DNA of 64,000 bases from Escherichia phage vB_EcoM_phAPEC6. Under the pieces are notes generated by a model, which worked only from the letters and a program-made list of their open reading frames with translations, was not told where the DNA came from and made no database searches. Below are positions 36,949 through 58,636 of this stretch, in pieces (position 1 is the first letter of the stretch; each line of letters starts with the position of its first letter). The stretch lies in the sequence record MK817115.1; one strand, given 5' to 3'. Both the position numbers and the translations under genes were made by a program.

Positions 36949-37153
36949 TTTGAATCTCCTAACTTTGTGGGCCGTCGCACCATTGCCGCCCTACGAGATA
37001 CATTATTGCAGTACTGATATACTTTGTCAATACTTTTTTATTAATAGTTTTAGTTCCACCAGCAGATAGTTACTCACCGTTATTAACTATATATTTTGGA
37101 TACACTCCTGCACCCAGTGGGCTAGTTTTTGTCTATGCGTATATAATAGCAAA

Positions 37154-37181
37154 GGGACTGACCGGAGTCAATCCCTTTTTT
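37154..37181. terminator. intrinsic terminator hairpin (conserved repeat-element copy 1)
   Basis: GGGACTGAC-cgga-GTCAATCCC followed by TTTTTT on plus; A-run on other side (bidirectional potential). Confidence 0.45.
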
Positions 37182-37192
37182 ATTCTTTTTTG

Positions 37193-39308: not shown

Positions 39309-39422
39309 TACTTTTTATCAAATACTTTAAAATAGTTTTCAGTACTGAATACTTATATAATAGATACACTTATGCACCCTGTGGGTCAGTGAGTTATCTC
39401 TCAATGAATATATATTAGCAAA

Positions 39423-39450
39423 GGGACTGACCGGAGTCAATCCCTTTTTT
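39423..39450. terminator. intrinsic terminator hairpin (conserved repeat-element copy 2)
   Basis: GGGACTGAC-cgga-GTCAATCCC + TTTTTT on plus; lies just downstream of kinase-like gene stop on minus. Confidence 0.45.
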
Positions 39451-39458
39451 AATCTTTT

Positions 39459-42581: not shown

Positions 42582-42726
42582 TAAAACATTATACTTGATT
42601 CTAAGTACAATGCAAGTACTTTTTAAAAATAGTTTTCAGTACTTGATAGTACTAGCCACCAGCATATAATAGATACATTTATGCACCCTGTGGGTTAGAT
42701 TGTTTCTATGCATATATAATAGCAAA

Positions 42727-42754
42727 GGGACTGACCGGAGTCAATCCCTTTTTT
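42727..42754. terminator. intrinsic terminator hairpin (conserved repeat-element copy 3)
   Basis: GGGACTGAC-cgga-GTCAATCCC + TTTTTT. Confidence 0.45.
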
Positions 42755-42762
42755 AAATCTTT

Positions 42763-45882: not shown

Positions 45883-46065
45883 GATTCGTTTCCTTATTAC
45901 CAGGGGAAACCGTTTCCCCTCTCGATGTAAAACATTATACGCCAATTGAGATAGTTTGCAAGTACTTTTTAAAAATAGTTTTCAGTACTCAATACTTATA
46001 TAATAGATACACTTATGCACCCGGTGGGCTAGTGAGCTATCTCTCAATGAATATATAATAGCAAA

Positions 46066-46094
46066 ATGGCTGACCGAAGTCAACCACTTTTTTC
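46066..46094. terminator. intrinsic terminator hairpin (conserved repeat-element copy 4, diverged)
   Basis: TGGCTGAC-cgaa-GTCAACCA + TTTTTT. Confidence 0.4.
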
Positions 46095-46096
46095 AT

Positions 46097-46321: not shown

Positions 46322-46500
46322 TTTTTAGCCTGGAAGTAATGTTTAATTTGTGCGGCGGTCAGTGCACAATTACGCAGGAAGTTTTCTGTATAACTGCGGC
46401 GAGTACTGAAAGAGAATTGACCTTTGCCGTTACCGATAGTAACATCAAACCGAGCGTTGTATTGTTTCATTTTGTTTCTCCTGTTATTGGGGAGAATCAT
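46318..46500 (-). CDS. hypothetical protein (60 aa)
   Basis: ORF track; SD AGGAG. Confidence 0.6.
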   Translation of the reverse strand: MILPNNRRNKMKQYNARFDVTIGNGKGQFSFSTRRSYTENFLRNCALTAAQIKHYFQAKK

Positions 46501-46549
46501 TTCTCCCCTTCATGTAAAACATTATACAGTACTAAAAACTAATTGCAAG
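46489..46549 (-). promoter_or_regulatory. early-type promoter + 5' GC hairpin cassette (PeSL-like)
   Basis: TTGCAA-N16-TATAAT then hairpin GGGGAGAA-tcat-TTCTCCCC. Confidence 0.55.
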
Positions 46550-46551
46550 TA

Positions 46552-46698
46552 CTATTTTTTAGATTTACGCAAACTTTCTACCATCTCAGGAGTAAGGCCA
46601 GGCGGGTAGGAAACCACTTCATCAACGAAACGTAAAGGGAATACCCCAGCGAAAGGTGAACATGCTTTCTTAGTATTACTCTTTTTTGATGCTTTCAT
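46552..46698 (-). CDS. small protein (48 aa), hypothetical
   Basis: own reading: MKASKKSNTKKACSPFAGVFPLRFVDEV...; preceded by promoter + hairpin GGAGAGAAtcatTTCTCCCC. Confidence 0.35.
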   Translation of the reverse strand: MKASKKSNTKKACSPFAGVFPLRFVDEVVSYPPGLTPEMVESLRKSKK

Positions 46699-50522: not shown

Positions 50523-50551
50523 TTGACAAGTGCATCCAGTACTGGCATAAT
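50523..50551 (+). promoter_or_regulatory. plus-strand sigma70-like promoter (antisense orientation)
   Basis: TTGACA-N17-CATAAT on plus strand; no plus ORF downstream. Confidence 0.4.
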
Positions 50552-50621
50552 TACTACATCAAGACGAAACAGTCACTAACCCACCGGGTGCCGAGATCCG
50601 TCTATTAAATGATTCAGTACT

Positions 50622-50650
50622 AAAAAAAGAAAGGGGATCAATTGATCCCC
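50622..50650 (-). terminator. intrinsic terminator
   Basis: perfect palindrome GGGGATCAATTGATCCCC with T-run on minus side, directly after stop of 50657..50878. Confidence 0.55.
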
Positions 50651-50656
50651 TCGTTG

Positions 50657-50878
50657 TTATTTTGTAAGGTATAAACAGAAGTCACCTTTATTTGCTACGC
50701 CGCCAGTGTAACGCGAGGAATAGTTAGAAACGTCCTGGACTTCTGCTATTACCAGGGTATCATCATTCAATTCGTCGCAGAAGCAAACGGCTGGATCTTG
50801 TACGCCGATATTGTCGGCATGTTCCCGCATAGATTTAACCAGTGCTTCAAGTTGGGAAAGAGTAGTGATATTAGCCAT
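50657..50878 (-). CDS. hypothetical protein (~73 aa)
   Basis: ORF track 50657..50908; start moved to MANITTLS Met downstream of hairpin. Confidence 0.55.
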   Translation of the reverse strand: MANITTLSQLEALVKSMREHADNIGVQDPAVCFCDELNDDTLVIAEVQDVSNYSSRYTGGVANKGDFCLYLTK

Positions 50879-50961
50879 TTTATTTTCCTCATTACCAGGG
50901 AGAACCATTTCTCCCCTTGATGTAAACTATTATACAGTACTAAAAACTAATTGCAAGTACT

Positions 50962-52467: not shown

Positions 52468-52496
52468 TTGACAGCACTATCCAGTACTGGTATAAT
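52468..52496 (+). promoter_or_regulatory. plus-strand consensus sigma70 promoter (antisense orientation)
   Basis: perfect TTGACA-N17-TATAAT on plus strand; no plus ORF follows. Confidence 0.45.
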
Positions 52497-52670
52497 ATAC
52501 CCCATGACAACAGCTAACCCACCGGGTGCACAATTGTAACTGTACTAAACTACTTTTTCTATAGATACACTCCCGCACCCTATGGGCTACGGCTTATCTG
52601 CCAATGAATACATTATGCCAGTACTGACAAAATAAGTCAATACCGGCAATTGTAAAGATTTGTAAACTAC

Positions 52671-54034: not shown

Positions 54035-54148
54035 CGTTTTCATCTCTCTTACAGTGTAGCGGGAAGTGTTCCCGCTCTCGATGTAAAACATTATACGCTT
54101 TTAAACATAGTTTGCAAGTACTTTCTACATGTACTTTTAAAATAGTTT

Positions 54149-54235
54149 TCTTTCTATATAGGAGTACTATTATTCAGTACTGCAACCATCCAGGGGAACT
54201 ATCTTTCTATATAGTAGTACTATTATTCAGTACTG
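54149..54235. repeat. direct repeat, two ~34-bp copies
   Basis: tctttctatataggagtactattattcagtactg at 54149-54182 and near-identical copy at 54202-54235. Confidence 0.7.
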
Positions 54236-54397
54236 AATCAATCAACCAAATCACTACTACACCCCGTAAAACGGCCTCAGACGCATTCTAACGCATTAAT
54301 ACACCCAAGCTATACATTTGCACCATTCCAATCATTCCAGGGCTTTACGGGCCGTTTAAACGCGTTAAATTATTTTCAATTATTTTGTTTTTAGGTA

Positions 54398-54425
54398 TTG
54401 ACTCAGTACAGAAAAAGCGTATAAT
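54398..54425 (+). promoter_or_regulatory. plus-strand sigma70-like promoter
   Basis: TTGACT-N16-TATAAT on plus. Confidence 0.4.
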
Positions 54426-54612
54426 TACTATATAGACGCGAGAAAGCGGAAACCCCAGAGGGTGCGGAATTACGCCCAAAATTCAAGATATAAAAAAAGG
54501 ATACACTCCCGCACCCTAGCAGGTAAACGCACTTTCTCAGTACTGAAATATAGTACCATAGTCCGGCCCAGGATAGCAAGCAAATTAATTAAAACTTTTT
54601 TCATCCAGGGTA

Positions 54613-54640
54613 TTGCTTTATTTTTCCAGTACTGTATAAT
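54613..54640 (+). promoter_or_regulatory. plus-strand sigma70-like promoter
   Basis: TTGCTT-N16-TATAAT on plus, followed by CCCACCGGGTG motif. Confidence 0.4.
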
Positions 54641-54860
54641 AGTTCCATCAAGTCGAGAAAGACTCAAGCCCACCGGGTGCATAGTTACGCCCAAAATTCA
54701 GTACTAGATTATTTTTTAAAAATATTCATCCAGGCGGTTGACATTGCCCCCAGTTTATAAGATAATGATTCCAGATTCAGAAAAATCTAACTCCAGATAC
54801 TGCGGGGAAACTATCCCCACGCGGTAGGGGAACTATTGGAAAAAACAAAATAAAATTTTG

Positions 54861-55000
54861 ATTTAGCCGTCTATACTTCCAGACGTGTAACCATCTAGCC
54901 GTTTAGCCGTCCAAACGTCTAGCCATCCAGCCCTCCAGAAATCTAGCCGTTTAGCCGTCTAGATGGATAGCCATCTTTACTTCCAGACTTCTGGAGGGCT
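54861..55000. repeat. iteron-like cluster of short direct repeats with flanking inverted repeat
   Basis: TAGCCGT occurs at least five times and TAGCCAT twice within ~110 bp; inverted repeat GCCCTCCAGAA ... TTCTGGAGGGC; direct repeat ACTTCCAGAC x2. Confidence 0.6.
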
Positions 55001-55860
55001 AGACATATCTACGTCCAAAATCCACCCAGGGTAACTACGCCCAAAATCCGTCAGTACTATACCATAGATCTATCTTTTGAAAGGGAGTATTCAGTACTGC
55101 CATCATAGCCCTCACTATGTTACCCTAGGAGGATGAAGACTATCATGTAGTACTGAATACTGTTAGAGGGAATCCACCAGCACAAGCTGGTGGCATAATG
55201 CTTTAGATTAAAATCAGTACTGACACCATTCTGTTAATATCAGTACTGTTATTACGATTTTCATATGAGGTTCAAAAAGATGTACCACCACAGGAGGAAC
55301 TATCTTTTCTGTACTGTCTCACGACAGGAGGTAGAGTAAATGAATTGTTCGCAGCAACTCATCACCCTATGTAGAACATTATACAGTACTGAATCATAAT
55401 GTCAATAGCTTTCTTTCATTATTCAGTACTGATATTCTTGAGAACTACCCGACTACAAACATCATTATATCCCACAAATCATAAACGTCCCAACGTAAAT
55501 TTCAACTTTCGAAGATCCAACTTTTATTTCATAGGTACTCCAAAATTTTTAGGATCGAGATTTAGGATGGAGTACTAACCAACTTTTTGCTGGAGCCTCA
55601 AGGGGTAATGGAATTTTACCCCGAAGGGTAAAGGGGTAATTGAAATTAAGGTGAAAGTAATAATTCAGTACTAATCATTGCGTGATTACTTTTGATTACA
55701 TTTGATGTAATTTGAAAAATGGAAAAGGAGCTTGGAAACTACAAAGTACGGCAGACTTCCTCTGCCTACTTAGTGGCATATCAGTACTGAATCCTTCCCG
55801 TGCATTCTTGAGCATTCTTGTCTATACTAATCAGTACTGAATCATATATAATCATTCTGT

Positions 55861-56033: not shown

Positions 56034-56225
56034 TTACTTTCTATATATAAGCATTAAGATATAGTAGTACTGATTATACTGTACATTCTCTTTAATATTA
56101 TAAGGGTCTATAGCAATCTCGGTACATCTGTTAAATGCATATCTATTAAATGCCAGTGGAATTATAGATCTAATCCATACTTGTTCATTTTCTTTTAGTT
56201 TACTTATATAGAAGTTTTTATACAT
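56034..56225 (-). CDS. family C paralog (small protein, N-term M.KEFY, C-term LIxRY)
   Basis: ORF track 63 aa; MYKNFYISKL...ILMLIYRK. Confidence 0.6.
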   Translation of the reverse strand: MYKNFYISKLKENEQVWIRSIIPLAFNRYAFNRCTEIAIDPYNIKENVQYNQYYYILMLIYRK

Positions 56226-56240
56226 AGTATTCTCTATTAA

Positions 56241-56423
56241 TTAATATGATAGTACTAGTGTTAGTACTGAGCACAATTGTTCTTTATAGTTCTTAGGGTA
56301 TATAGAATCTTTTATGCACTCATTGAAGTGCCATAGGTATAATCTTGGGTCGCATTCTTTATATATTCTTACGGGGACGAATGTTAGTTTTCTTATATAG
56401 AATTCTTTATGTTCTTTATTCAT
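56241..56423 (-). CDS. family C paralog
   Basis: ORF track 60 aa; MNKEHKEFYIRKL... Confidence 0.6.
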   Translation of the reverse strand: MNKEHKEFYIRKLTFVPVRIYKECDPRLYLWHFNECIKDSIYPKNYKEQLCSVLTLVLSY

Positions 56424-56424
56424 A

Positions 56425-56613
56425 TTAGTACCTGAATATAAGTAGGATTATGTTATAGTACTGGTTAGTACTGCAATGATTCTCTATACATCGATTAACA
56501 GTTATGGAATAGCTATATCTGGCGTAAGCATTATCCAGCGGGATTTTACATTGAGCACTTAGAGAAAGTACAGTAGGTAGTGTATTCAAATAGAAGTCTT
56601 TGTAATTATTCAT
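56425..56613 (-). CDS. family C paralog
   Basis: ORF track 62 aa; MNNYKDFYLNTL...IILLIFRY. Confidence 0.6.
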   Translation of the reverse strand: MNNYKDFYLNTLPTVLSLSAQCKIPLDNAYARYSYSITVNRCIENHCSTNQYYNIILLIFRY

Positions 56614-56815
56614 ACAGGAATAGTATACCTATGATACCTGAGTACAGGTTAGTACTGTTACCATCTTCGTTTGCGTTTAAAGTCATTTGAATACAATTAT
56701 TGTAGCATACTCTGCCGAAAAATGTATTAGTACTTAAAGGTGGAGTAGTCCTTAGAAACATTTGTTCTGAGGGGCTTATGTATTTGGAGTAGAATTCTTT
56801 ATGTTCTTTATTCAT
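56606..56815 (-). CDS. family C paralog
   Basis: ORF track 69 aa; MNKEHKEFYSKYIS...GILFLYE. Confidence 0.6.
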   Translation of the reverse strand: MNKEHKEFYSKYISPSEQMFLRTTPPLSTNTFFGRVCYNNCIQMTLNANEDGNSTNLYSGIIGILFLYE

Positions 56816-56820
56816 ATTAG

Positions 56821-57006
56821 TTAGTGTCTGTATATAAGTAATAGTAAGAATACGTACTGCACATCTTCATCTTTAGTATTGAGTACTGTACGTATTGCGT
56901 CATTAAACAAGAATATAGTACTTGGGTCATGAGAATTTAAAGGGGTTCTGGGTACGGCATGTTTGTAGTTCCCTTTAACAAATTGTGTGTAGTATTCTCT
57001 ATGCAT
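56821..57006 (-). CDS. family C paralog
   Basis: ORF track 61 aa; MHREYYTQFV...LLLLIYRH. Confidence 0.6.
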   Translation of the reverse strand: MHREYYTQFVKGNYKHAVPRTPLNSHDPSTIFLFNDAIRTVLNTKDEDVQYVFLLLLIYRH

Positions 57007-57007
57007 A

Positions 57008-57193
57008 TTAGTACCTATATATTAGGGCGATAATGTAGTACAATTCATATGGAATGTAATTTGGGGTGATCGCACACTGTGTATGGTAAATGAATTGTTC
57101 GGTATTTTTCTTATCCTTGATATCTATTGGGATTAGTGGTATAAGCATTTGGGAGTTTAGATCGAGATGGCTTAAGTAGAATTCTTTATGCAT
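57008..57193 (-). CDS. family C paralog
   Basis: ORF track 61 aa; MHKEFYLSHL...IIALIYRY. Confidence 0.6.
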   Translation of the reverse strand: MHKEFYLSHLDLNSQMLIPLIPIDIKDKKNTEQFIYHTQCAITPNYIPYELYYIIALIYRY

Positions 57194-57202
57194 ATTGTTC
57201 TT

Positions 57203-57391
57203 TTAGAATACGAAAGCTAGGTACAGGGTATGATACAGTACTCGATGATAGCTGTCAAAATCTAGTATACATGCTTTAGTGCACATAGTAAAGTACACTT
57301 TATCGTTTTGTGCATTGATACCGCGAGGTTTATCTAATAGATTAGTACTGAGGTACATTGGGAAATATTTTGTGTAGTATTCTTTATGCAT
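57203..57391 (-). CDS. family C paralog
   Basis: ORF track 57203..57436; start moved to MHKEYYTKYF Met by paralog alignment. Confidence 0.55.
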   Translation of the reverse strand: MHKEYYTKYFPMYLSTNLLDKPRGINAQNDKVYFTMCTKACILDFDSYHRVLYHTLYLAFVF

Positions 57392-57392
57392 A

Positions 57393-57575
57393 TTAGTACC
57401 TGAATATAAGTAGGATAGTGTTATATAGCTGGTCATAACTACTACTATTTTCTATACTTCGTTCTATGCAGTTATTGAATCCCAGTACTGCCAAATCGTT
57501 ATCCATAGGGACTTTGTATCTGGCGTAGTGTTCAAAAATGCTGGGGAGAAATTGTGTGTAGTATTCTTTGTGCAT
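57393..57575 (-). CDS. family C paralog
   Basis: ORF track 60 aa; MHKEYYTQFL...ILLIFRY. Confidence 0.6.
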   Translation of the reverse strand: MHKEYYTQFLPSIFEHYARYKVPMDNDLAVLGFNNCIERSIENSSSYDQLYNTILLIFRY

Positions 57576-57576
57576 A

Positions 57577-57762
57577 TTAGTACCTATATATTAGTAAAAG
57601 GATGTGATACAGTACTCGATTATAGTCTTCAATATATATCGAGGATTTAGTGCACTGAATGAAGTAGTCTTTTTCGTAGTTTTTTTCTATACCCAATGGT
57701 TCTGTTGGTACAAGGTGTTGGAGATACATTGGGAGTTTCTCTATGTAGTATTCTTTATACAT
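57577..57762 (-). CDS. family C paralog
   Basis: ORF track 61 aa; MYKEYYIEKL...LLLIYRY. Confidence 0.6.
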   Translation of the reverse strand: MYKEYYIEKLPMYLQHLVPTEPLGIEKNYEKDYFIQCTKSSIYIEDYNRVLYHILLLIYRY

Positions 57763-57771
57763 ATATTATCC

Positions 57772-57972
57772 TTAGTACTGGAACGCAAGGTACAGGGTGT
57801 GGTAAAGTTGTACTTGATAATTGTTTTCATTAGCTTCTTCATTAAGTACTTGTTCAGTACATGTACGGAAGTAATCAGCTTCATATATACAGTCAATACC
57901 GCGAGGTTCATCTTCTAATAGATTTCCTTGTAGAAACTTTGGTAGTTCTTTTATGTAGAATTCTTTATACAT
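57772..57972 (-). CDS. family C paralog
   Basis: ORF track 57772..58035; start moved to MYKEFYIKEL Met by paralog alignment. Confidence 0.55.
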   Translation of the reverse strand: MYKEFYIKELPKFLQGNLLEDEPRGIDCIYEADYFRTCTEQVLNEEANENNYQVQLYHTLYLAFQY

Positions 57973-58636
57973 AGTTTGTAATATACGTAATGAGGTGATG
58001 CATTTTCTTATCAGTACTGATAATTTCCTGTACATGTTTTGTCAGATTGTACGCGTTTTTATAGAGTACTGGATTATCGATTACAGTACTGTACATGAAT
58101 AGTTCTTCTTCCTGTAGTTCTTTGTGTTCTAGTTCTTTGAGGAATTCTACAATTGATTTAGTTTCTTCTGTACGTTGTGCTTGCCAGAAGTGCATATTCT
58201 CGTGTACTTTTTTTGCACCTATACTGTATATACCACCCATTTGGAATTGTGCTGTATTGACATCGTGGGAGGTGTTACAATTCCCGAAGAAGTATGTATT
58301 CCCGAAGTATAGCATTAAAGTGCACGGGGTATTATCCAACTGCATATGGATGATGAAGGATGCGTTCTTTAGTACCTTTGTGCTCGTATTAGTACTCAAT
58401 ACTTTTAAATCAGTATTATAGATATTCATATAATGAACAGCTATATTATTTTTCTTCATGTACAATCCCAGGTTCTTTGATACGTTAACTCCATTTGTAC
58501 TGGATTTTTCCTTTTTATTTCGTTTCTTTAGTACATTCGGGTGATACGTATATGCAGATGTAACTGATTCTGCCTGAATACTATTGAGGTACTTAAAGTG
58601 CTTAAGGTATTGTTTGCTGTGTGCATTAAGTTTCAT
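57965..58636 (-). CDS. hypothetical protein (223 aa) with family A-like motif, embedded in family C array
   Basis: ORF track; motif QEEELFMYSTVIDNP; SD AGGAAA. Confidence 0.6.
   Translation of the reverse strand: MKLNAHSKQYLKHFKYLNSIQAESVTSAYTYHPNVLKKRNKKEKSSTNGVNVSKNLGLYMKKNNIAVHYMNIYNTDLKVLSTNTSTKVLKNASFIIHMQLDNTPCTLMLYFGNTYFFGNCNTSHDVNTAQFQMGGIYSIGAKKVHENMHFWQAQRTEETKSIVEFLKELEHKELQEEELFMYSTVIDNPVLYKNAYNLTKHVQEIISTDKKMHHLITYITNYV

Follow-up and report, generated by a model that had tools for sequence, protein, structure and literature searches.

The window analysed here is a 64,000-nucleotide (nt) stretch of Escherichia phage vB_EcoM_phAPEC6 (MK817115.1), and the element in question is an intergenic repeat of about 85 nt whose focal copy lies at 37088..37186. 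In the surrounding region, from ~33 to 58 kb, almost every open reading frame (ORF) is small and located on the minus strand, and the region is packed with repeated minus-strand sigma70 promoter cassettes (repeat families D1-D10; consensus scan). The window matches the Asteriusvirus-type jumbo coliphages JP4, slurp01, G17, 121Q and PBECO4, which show 90-95% identity and align to the region only piecewise, with 47-78% coverage. A scan of the window for transfer RNAs and transfer-messenger RNAs found none, a covariance-model search of the whole window against Rfam 15 gave no match at the gathering threshold, and a permissive Rfam search (E<=5) of 50.4-54.8 kb returned chance-level matches only.

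The region probably belongs to the terminal repeat of the phage genome. An annotated direct terminal repeat (DTR) of 21.5 kb in phage vB_Ec-M-J contains, at 17.3 kb, the homologue of copy 2 of the element. It is reported that the DTR of Sharanji, another Asteriusvirus, is 20.7 kb (PMC11895373), and the start of the G17 record corresponds to about position 35.7 kb of the window. Extrapolation from these coordinates suggests that the DTR covers roughly 35-57 kb of the window. Transcription of the DTR genes is directed inward from the genome end. Every copy of the element in the window falls inside 37.1-54.7 kb; in phage CBB all copies lie within the 22.5-kb DTR and none in the following 15 kb, and the copies of the window, CBB, GAP32 and Serratia phage BF are all found in the terminal-repeat-proximal early region.

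An earlier note on this DNA had listed four near-identical copies of the repeat (37099-37181, 39362-39450, 42671-42754 and 46011-46094) and two partial ones. The four full copies were recovered as repeat families D15, D17 and D18 and by alignment of the copies, which confirmed them. Exact occurrences of the 22-mer GGGACTGACCGGAGTCAATCCC were found at 37154-37175, 39423-39444 and 42727-42748 (0 expected by chance), and in copy 4 the hairpin (46063-46090) is a variant in which the changes are compensatory. Both partial copies were also located, but the one at 52561-52628 proved to be a full promoter and leader without the hairpin, and the one at 54500-54530 is degenerate. The six listed copies are real; four copies in the opposite orientation had been missed (motifs at 50580, 52518, 54454 and 54669). 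The window thus holds four full copies, one hairpin-less copy, one degenerate copy and four reverse-oriented ones. The 12-mer GCACCCnGTGGG, with one mismatch allowed, occurs nine times in the window, against 0.14 expected.

A hidden Markov model was built from the nine window copies and followed by a covariance model, R1. The search with R1 found 102 copies, 100 of them distinct, in the window, G17, 121Q, RaK2, CBB, GAP32, BF, Salmonella phage Munch and uncultured viral contigs. A leader-only pattern added 87 further copies (81 distinct) from metagenome contigs, and the combined family comprises ~180 distinct copies in at least five phage genera. By BLAST, the element was also found with 73-80% identity over ~100 nt in the phages K64-1, SE_PL and Erwinia pEa_SNUABM, often inside annotated terminal repeats, and the match in Yersinia phage fHe-Yen9-04 spans only ~35 nt. 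On the other hand, a 27-nt degenerate leader pattern gave 0 matches in 185,579 bacterial and archaeal species genomes, and host mimicry and prophage origin were rejected on this basis. Two RNA-seq-supported non-coding transcripts from the terminal repeat of the distant relative PA5oct, ncRNA001 and ncRNA002, were considered as members of the same family and rejected, as neither matched the model.

Promoter core and hairpin

When the copies were oriented so that the 12-mer reads CCCAYnGGGTGC, all nine window motifs were preceded on that strand by TTGACx-N16/17-TAtAAT, ~30 nt upstream and at nearly fixed spacing, and all nine promoters score 10-12/12 or close to that. In the family, a same-strand promoter of at least 10/12 is present in 75 of 99 copies, compared with ~1% of background windows, and the -10 hexamer ends 3 nt before model position 1 in 65/99. 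The predicted +1 is the A of a conserved "CA", in which A is found in 100/100 copies and C at -1 in 83%. On the opposite strand, which is the plus strand in the focal copies, a promoter of at least 10/12 was found in 3/99 copies only. The plus-strand TTGATA-N16-TATAAT pointed out by the earlier note is indeed present at 42643-42670, but copy 3 is the sole window copy with a good promoter on the strand opposite to its own.

In the four full copies, the -35 hexamer TTGACT forms the 5' arm and loop of the minus-strand hairpin GGGA-TTGACT-CCGGTCAGTCCC, and the other five window copies consist of promoter and leader with no hairpin over the -35. Such a hairpin, which on the gene strand folds at -16 to -20 kcal/mol, is present in 4/9 window copies and 51/99 family copies. 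The hairpin with its T-run is absent from five of the nine window copies and from about half of the family. An A-run of at least 4 nt upstream of the -35 was found in 39/48 hairpin-bearing and 28/41 hairpin-less copies (67/89 overall). Since this run is present with or without the hairpin, the plus-strand T-run is best read, from the sequence, as the complement of an UP-like A-tract upstream of the -35. An UP-like element has been reported for the RpoD-like promoters of CBB (PMC5259590), and the A-tract fits it. Judged by its sequence, the repeat has as its conserved core a sigma70 promoter close to the consensus plus a leader, not the hairpin and T-run. The mini-ORF MHPVG*, which was thought to open each copy, was not upheld either; its ATG occurs in 3/4 full copies and is rare among the relatives, it has no Shine-Dalgarno sequence (SD), and the columns complementary to its start codon are variable across the family (column 63, A 44%; column 64, U 24%).

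Of 50 hairpins over the -35, 48 fold more stably on the promoter strand; the mean energy is -15.7 kcal/mol there and -9.9 on the other strand. For the window hairpin, the minus-strand fold has -20.5 kcal/mol (z = -6.2) and the plus-strand fold -14.7 (z = -3.7), the plus-strand stem being interrupted by a C.A mismatch. The hairpin of copy 4 reaches -15.9 kcal/mol on the minus strand, compared with -6.4 (z = -1.4) on the plus strand, where the fold is weak because the substitutions retain U.G pairs on the minus strand alone. The consensus scan called minus-strand terminators at 37178-37151, 42751-42724 and 46090-46063; the hairpin of copy 2 fails the T-rich tail criterion of the scan, and none of these hairpins was called terminator-like on the plus strand. 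In phage G17, the same hairpins are annotated as minus-strand terminators by ARNold. The proposal of a bidirectional terminator module therefore holds in so far as the hairpin is terminator-like for the leftward genes, but comparable stems followed by a U-tract on both strands were not found in the window copies.

Structure and context of the leader RNA

The predicted transcript opens with a leader of ~55 nt that contains, in order, a hairpin (P1), cUAR, the mini-hairpin RCCC-AYA-GGGU (P2a) and, in competition with the latter, the helix GGGUG(C):(G)YRYCY (P2b). P1 extends from +3 to ~+16 and consists of 4 bp and a purine-rich loop of 6-7 nt; a short class of copies has an A-rich tract instead. 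When helix pairing was counted on the covariance-model alignments, P1 was paired in 94.5% of the isolate set and in 92.7% of the independent metagenome set, with two-sided compensatory changes in 4/4 pairs, and controls in which the partner was slid by 1-3 columns gave 31-72%. At least ten kinds of stem were seen (UGAG, UGGC, GGAG, GGAA, GACG, GCCR, AGCA, GAC, CGC, AGUC, CCAC), with loops including AGAUAA, GCGAAA, GAGAAA, GAACAA and AGAACAA. P1 has 27 G.U/U.G cells and 0 A.C/C.A cells. Because G.U pairs occur and A.C never does, the evidence favours the gene-sense (promoter) strand as the one that carries the selected RNA structure, which is the minus strand for the four focal copies.

P2a is paired in 98.5% of the isolate set, with some CCU..AGG covariants and a loop of 3-5 nt. 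P2b joins GGGUG with YRYCY 9-13 nt downstream and is paired in 97.8% of the isolates and 97.0% of the metagenome copies. Its variation is restricted to GU<->GC and UA<->UG; the paired 3' columns vary almost solely by transitions, and their unpaired neighbours show transversions. The minimum-free-energy form contains P2a in 63/94 copies and P2b in 26/94. The covariance-model alignment was needed for these results, as plain MAFFT with RNAalifold recovered the CCC/GGG mini-hairpin only and missed P1, which was misaligned. A pseudoknot between the P1 loop AGAUA and a downstream UAUCU, predicted by RNAfold in two copies, was rejected for want of covariation, since copies with the loops GCGAAA and GAGAAA retain the same downstream sequence. 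An apparent terminator formed from the next promoter (CATTGTACTT..AAGTATAATG+T4) was treated as incidental, as it is found after copies 2 and 3 of the window and their orthologues and after no others. The leader is not described in the genome papers of CBB, PA5oct and Sharanji, and this RNA motif, which has no Rfam entry, is apparently undescribed in the literature. Annotations of the hairpins themselves already exist, as terminators in G17 and as a stem-loop in GAP32.

What follows the leader differs among the copies. About 30 of 99 belong to convergent pairs whose motifs are 35, 46 or 53 nt apart. About 13/99 have a strong intrinsic terminator ~17 nt past the model end, and RNAs of ~100 nt are therefore predicted for them (in the window, from 50558 to ~50660). 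About 20/99 precede ORFs. In four relatives the leader is followed by an ATG within 13-16 nt (L033:6013-6064, L009:2056-2107, L057:12599-12650 and L068:15396-15439); three of these ORFs encode a conserved protein of ~175 aa that starts with MPGQFRSK and has a Gly/Ser/Arg-rich N-terminus, and the fourth encodes an HNH endonuclease of Salmonella phage Munch. In the four focal copies the leader continues into the promoter cassette of the next gene. The leaders in the window meet another promoter, a terminator or a convergent copy, usually with no SD and ATG directly after.

The four full copies are all on the minus strand. Copy 1, the focal element at 37088..37186, has its terminator hairpin at 37151-37178, the -35 TTGACT at 37166-37171, the -10 TATTAT at 37143-37148 and the predicted +1 A at 37136; its leader spans 37098-37136 with CCCACTGGGTGC at 37110-37121. 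It belongs to the short class, with an A-rich tract where a clear P1 hairpin would be. Copy 2 (39352..39455) has the hairpin at 39420-39447, the -35 TTGACT at 39435-39440, the -10 TAATAT at 39412-39417, the predicted +1 A at 39405, P1 UGAG-AGAUAA-CUCA and the motif at 39374-39385, and the 3' arm of its P2b ends at 39362. Copy 3 (42661..42757) carries the hairpin at 42724-42751, the -35 at 42739-42744, the -10 at 42716-42721, the predicted +1 A at 42709 and the motif at 42683-42694. In copy 4 (45995..46096) the variant hairpin lies at 46063-46090, the -35 at 46078-46083, the -10 at 46055-46060, the predicted +1 A at 46048 and the motif at 46017-46028.

Copy 5 (52553..52640, minus strand) lacks the terminator hairpin and is the left-pointing half of a convergent pair with copy 6. 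It has the -35 TTGACT at 52635-52640, the -10 CATAAT at 52612-52617, the predicted +1 A at 52605, P1 GGC-AGAUAA-GCC and the motif CCCATAGGGTGC at 52575-52586. Its right-pointing partner, copy 6 (52468..52541, plus strand), consists of TTGACA-N17-TATAAT (12/12) and a leader with the predicted +1 A at about 52503 and the motif at 52518-52529. Within 52468-52640 the two copies face each other with consensus promoters ~170 bp apart. Their transcripts would be fully complementary to one another, and each would contain CCCACCGGGUGC...GCACCCUAUGGG and could fold as a long hairpin. CBB, GAP32, BF and Munch have similar convergent pairs at a distance of 1-4 kb from the genome end.

The other plus-strand copies lie nearby. 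Copy 7 (50523..50660) is a small-RNA-like unit with TTGACA-N17-CATAAT, the predicted +1 A at 50558, P1 GAC-GAAACA-GUC and the motif at 50580-50591; an intrinsic terminator hairpin at 50631-50652 gives a predicted RNA of ~100 nt. Copy 8 (54398..54487) has TTGACT-N16-TATAAT, the predicted +1 A at 54432, P1 CGC-GAGAAA-GCG and the motif CCCAGAGGGTGC at 54454-54465, and its 3' arm ACGCCC pairs with GGGUG. In copy 9 (54613..54702) the promoter is TTGCTT-N16-TATAAT with an extended -10 TG, the predicted +1 A is at 54647, P1 is AGUC-GAGAAA-GACU and the motif lies at 54669-54680. The degenerate minus-strand copy (54498..54517) keeps only the P2b hairpin GGGUGC-GGGA-GUGUAUCC, followed by U7, and is terminator-like in appearance.

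Several other features were observed in the same region. A second minus-strand cassette family (families D1-D10; e.g. 46468-46553 and 50876-50961) outnumbers the studied element with 15-21 copies between 36.5 and 55.4 kb. Its layout, TTGCAA/TTGACA-N16-TATAAT, a leader hairpin GGGGAGAAnnnnTTCTCCCC, SD and ATG, is like that of the classic promoter-early stem-loop (PeSL), and it precedes most of the small early genes. The palindrome CAGTACTG occurs 58 times in the whole window against 0.8 expected (e.g. 39340-39347, 50537-50544, 52482-52489 and 54627-54634), and its core, AGTACT, occurs 270 times against ~16 expected, in genic and intergenic positions. About 18 of the 58 palindromes adjoin a -10-like hexamer, their TG giving an extended -10, and AGTACT also adjoins many -35 boxes (AGTACTTGCAA).

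For the E. coli Chi sequence GCTGGTGG, the window has 11 sites between 37056 and 55193, compared with 0.35 expected. All 11 sites are inside the putative terminal repeat, 9 of them on the minus strand, and two (37056 and 42656) are just downstream of copies 1 and 3; these sites may protect the DNA end from RecBCD. Copies 8 and 9 lie in a 1.2-kb ORF-poor stretch (54130-55340) that has three tandem plus-strand promoters (54398, 54613 and 54738), is faced by a minus-strand promoter at 55405-55378 and includes ~12 copies of the 8-bp unit TAGCCGTC at 54864-54962. This stretch, close to the genome end, may serve as an origin of replication or as a control hub. Further on, at 56034-58035, ~10 tandem minus-strand ORFs of 60-87 aa with a repeat period of ~190 bp (families D12 and D14) look like paralogous mini-genes.

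Possible function of the cassette

We consider it likely that the ~85-nt repeat is the reverse-strand view of a terminator-promoter cassette with a conserved leader RNA, which punctuates the leftward early units. On the minus strand, the UP-like A-tract is followed by the G/C hairpin, at which, we infer, the upstream unit ends. The 5' arm and loop of this hairpin carry the -35 TTGACT, followed by a 17-bp spacer and the -10 TATTAT, of what would be a strong sigma70 promoter, and the host RNA polymerase would restart at the invariant A, seven nt past the -10. The new RNA would then open with the ~55-nt structured leader. Anatomy, strand, RNA covariation and taxonomic spread of the element are established by the sequence data. 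Promoter and leader would be the functional core, which may head mRNAs, ~100-nt terminated RNAs and convergent pairs.

Several points weigh against this interpretation. All start sites and 3' ends given here are predictions, and so is the termination efficiency. The U-tract past the minus-strand hairpin is interrupted (CCCUUUGCUAUUAU), and the annotators of GAP32 labelled one homologue merely as 'stem_loop'. P1 is missing in ~27% of the copies, which keep the A-rich tract. P2a and P2b share GGGU and are mutually exclusive, and with mean energies of -4.0 and -2.8 kcal/mol, respectively, neither is thermodynamically strong. The variation of P2b is one-sided, and a conserved Y/R sequence pattern could mimic its pairing. 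The leader folds of single window copies are unremarkable (z-scores from -1.0 to +0.3). Furthermore, the functional step for the leader is a conjecture with a putative partner only.

For the leader itself, we tentatively suggest a role as a cis-acting 5' handle, in which protection by P1 is combined with recognition of CCC..GGGUGC. P1, two nt from the 5' end, would shield the transcript from 5'-end-dependent decay. The invariant CCC..GGGUGC would serve RNA polymerase or a conserved protein as a recognition site and would mark the terminal-repeat (pre-early) transcripts, possibly as a two-state switch. It is more doubtful whether the leader represents a new class of phage cis-regulatory RNA, a bistable 5' element that controls the fate of terminal-repeat transcripts in RaK2-like jumbo phages. 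Such a bistable element, with RNA polymerase or a conserved protein of phage or host as its reader, would act by antitermination, stabilisation or factor titration, with the ~100-nt forms as abundant decoys.

One alternative is that the leader is an antitermination site comparable to the nut and put sites, where the hairpin and CCCAYAGGGUGC load a factor of phage or host onto RNA polymerase or act on the polymerase directly, so that downstream terminators are read through, possibly in a timed manner. The element is promoter-proximal at a fixed distance from +1, the short stem of P1 with its purine-rich loop loosely recalls boxB and is followed by an invariant linear motif, and terminators stand downstream of many copies in a terminator-dense region, as tL1/tR1 do for the lambda nut sites. 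However, the leader logo contains no boxA consensus and the leader has no Rfam match, P1 is dispensable in the copies of the short class, and an N-like protein has no candidate. Since every block is served by promoters of its own, there is no obvious need for read-through, and we regard this explanation as unlikely.

Equally improbable, in our view, is that the units encode abundant RNAs acting in trans or as decoys, where the terminated ~100-nt forms would be the functional ones and titrate a host factor, for instance Hfq or an RNase, or a defence sensor, and the mRNA-leader copies are secondary. The ~13/99 complete units, each with a near-consensus promoter, a ~100-nt RNA and a strong terminator (including 50523-50660 of the window), agree with this idea, as do the A/R-rich loops, the U-rich 3' ends and the invariant 12-mer, which suggests a binding site. 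Most copies, however, continue into genes or a further promoter, complementarity to targets was not found, and the species genomes offered no host copy to mimic.

A role at the DNA level would have the repeats act as PeSL-type recombination linkers that shuffle early ORFans, or would make the 12-mer a site in double-stranded DNA where a regulator or roadblock acts, just downstream of the terminal-repeat promoters. The architecture parallels the PeSLs (PMC2839356, PMC4122927), the piecewise alignment of the relatives implies that the gene content between cassettes varies, and the motif is invariant across genera. Against this, P1 is conserved as structure and not as sequence, its G.U cells without A.C and the GU/GC pattern of P2b point to an RNA from one strand, and the 12-mer has no dyad symmetry and a fixed orientation relative to the promoter. 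We therefore think a DNA-level role improbable as well.

The reading of the earlier note, a plus-strand small RNA of ~85 nt from TATAAT to the hairpin and T-run, with the hairpin doubling as a bidirectional terminator, seems very improbable: the plus strand has a TATAAT in 3/4 full copies, a T6 run past the hairpin and a moderately stable fold (z -2.1 to -2.5), and the repeat does define an RNA family, but this RNA is in gene sense, starts within the element and does not end at the hairpin, and the scarcity of plus-strand promoters, the mismatched stem, the optional hairpin, the strand preference of P1, the T-run accounted for as an A-tract and the unconserved mini-ORF all count against a plus-strand product.

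Several RaK2-like jumbo phages are candidates for therapy; they depend on the RNA polymerase of the host, and there has been hardly any study of their early programme. If the cassette is a terminator, promoter and leader as proposed, the gain is a strand-resolved map of terminate-and-restart punctuation in the early region of the terminal repeat, together with a promoter-coupled RNA motif that has strong covariation and exact predicted start sites. If the leader is a regulatory handle, it would provide a new entry into early gene control and host takeover by giant phages. The cassette could also be a compact and portable terminator-promoter-leader part.

Comparison with known systems

Some E. 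coli mRNAs carry 5'-terminal stabilising stem-loops of the type found in the ompA 5' untranslated region. The leader resembles them in that P1 starts at +3 of the predicted RNA and its structure is conserved rather than its sequence. However, the invariant CCC..GGGUGC and the P1-less short class are unexplained by that model.

The leader also shares with the lambda nut (boxA-boxB) and HK022 put sites a promoter-proximal hairpin of the nascent RNA with a purine-rich loop, an adjacent conserved linear motif and terminators downstream. It differs from them in having no boxA, in the order of hairpin and motif, and in its loops of 6-7 nt, compared with a GNRA-like pentaloop. We take this possible resemblance as a lead only.

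The hairpin over the -35 is similar to intrinsic, partly bidirectional terminators, as it is G/C-rich, lies between an A-tract and a T-rich tract and directly follows a stop codon. In the present element, however, the stem is selected on one strand, the U-tract is interrupted and the hairpin also carries the -35 hexamer.

Arbiol, Comeau & Krisch (2010, PMC2839356) and Comeau et al. (2014, PMC4122927) described the PeSLs as composite promoter/terminator cassettes of T4-type phages. Both they and the present repeats are intergenic repeats of ~100 bp in which a sigma70 early promoter close to the consensus is combined with an AT-rich tract upstream of it and a stem-loop; in the PeSLs this stem-loop ends the transcription that arrives from upstream, and here it may do so. 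Both are concentrated among small ORFan early genes. The nt-1 pair stem-loop form A3-4 G3-loop-C3 T3-4 also matches AAAGGG..CCCTTT here. On the other hand, the stem-loop lies over the -35 in our element, and in the PeSLs it separates the -35 from the -10 or covers the -10; here it is optional, half of the copies being without it. The conserved structured leader (P1, CCCAYAGGGUGC and YRYCY) is outside the PeSL definition, and SD and ATG directly follow the leader in only the four relatives and usually not in the window. The hosts of the element are RaK2-like jumbo phages, with the copies in the terminal repeat. Taken together, the sequence comparison suggests that, in DNA architecture, the PeSL cassettes are the closest known relatives of this element.

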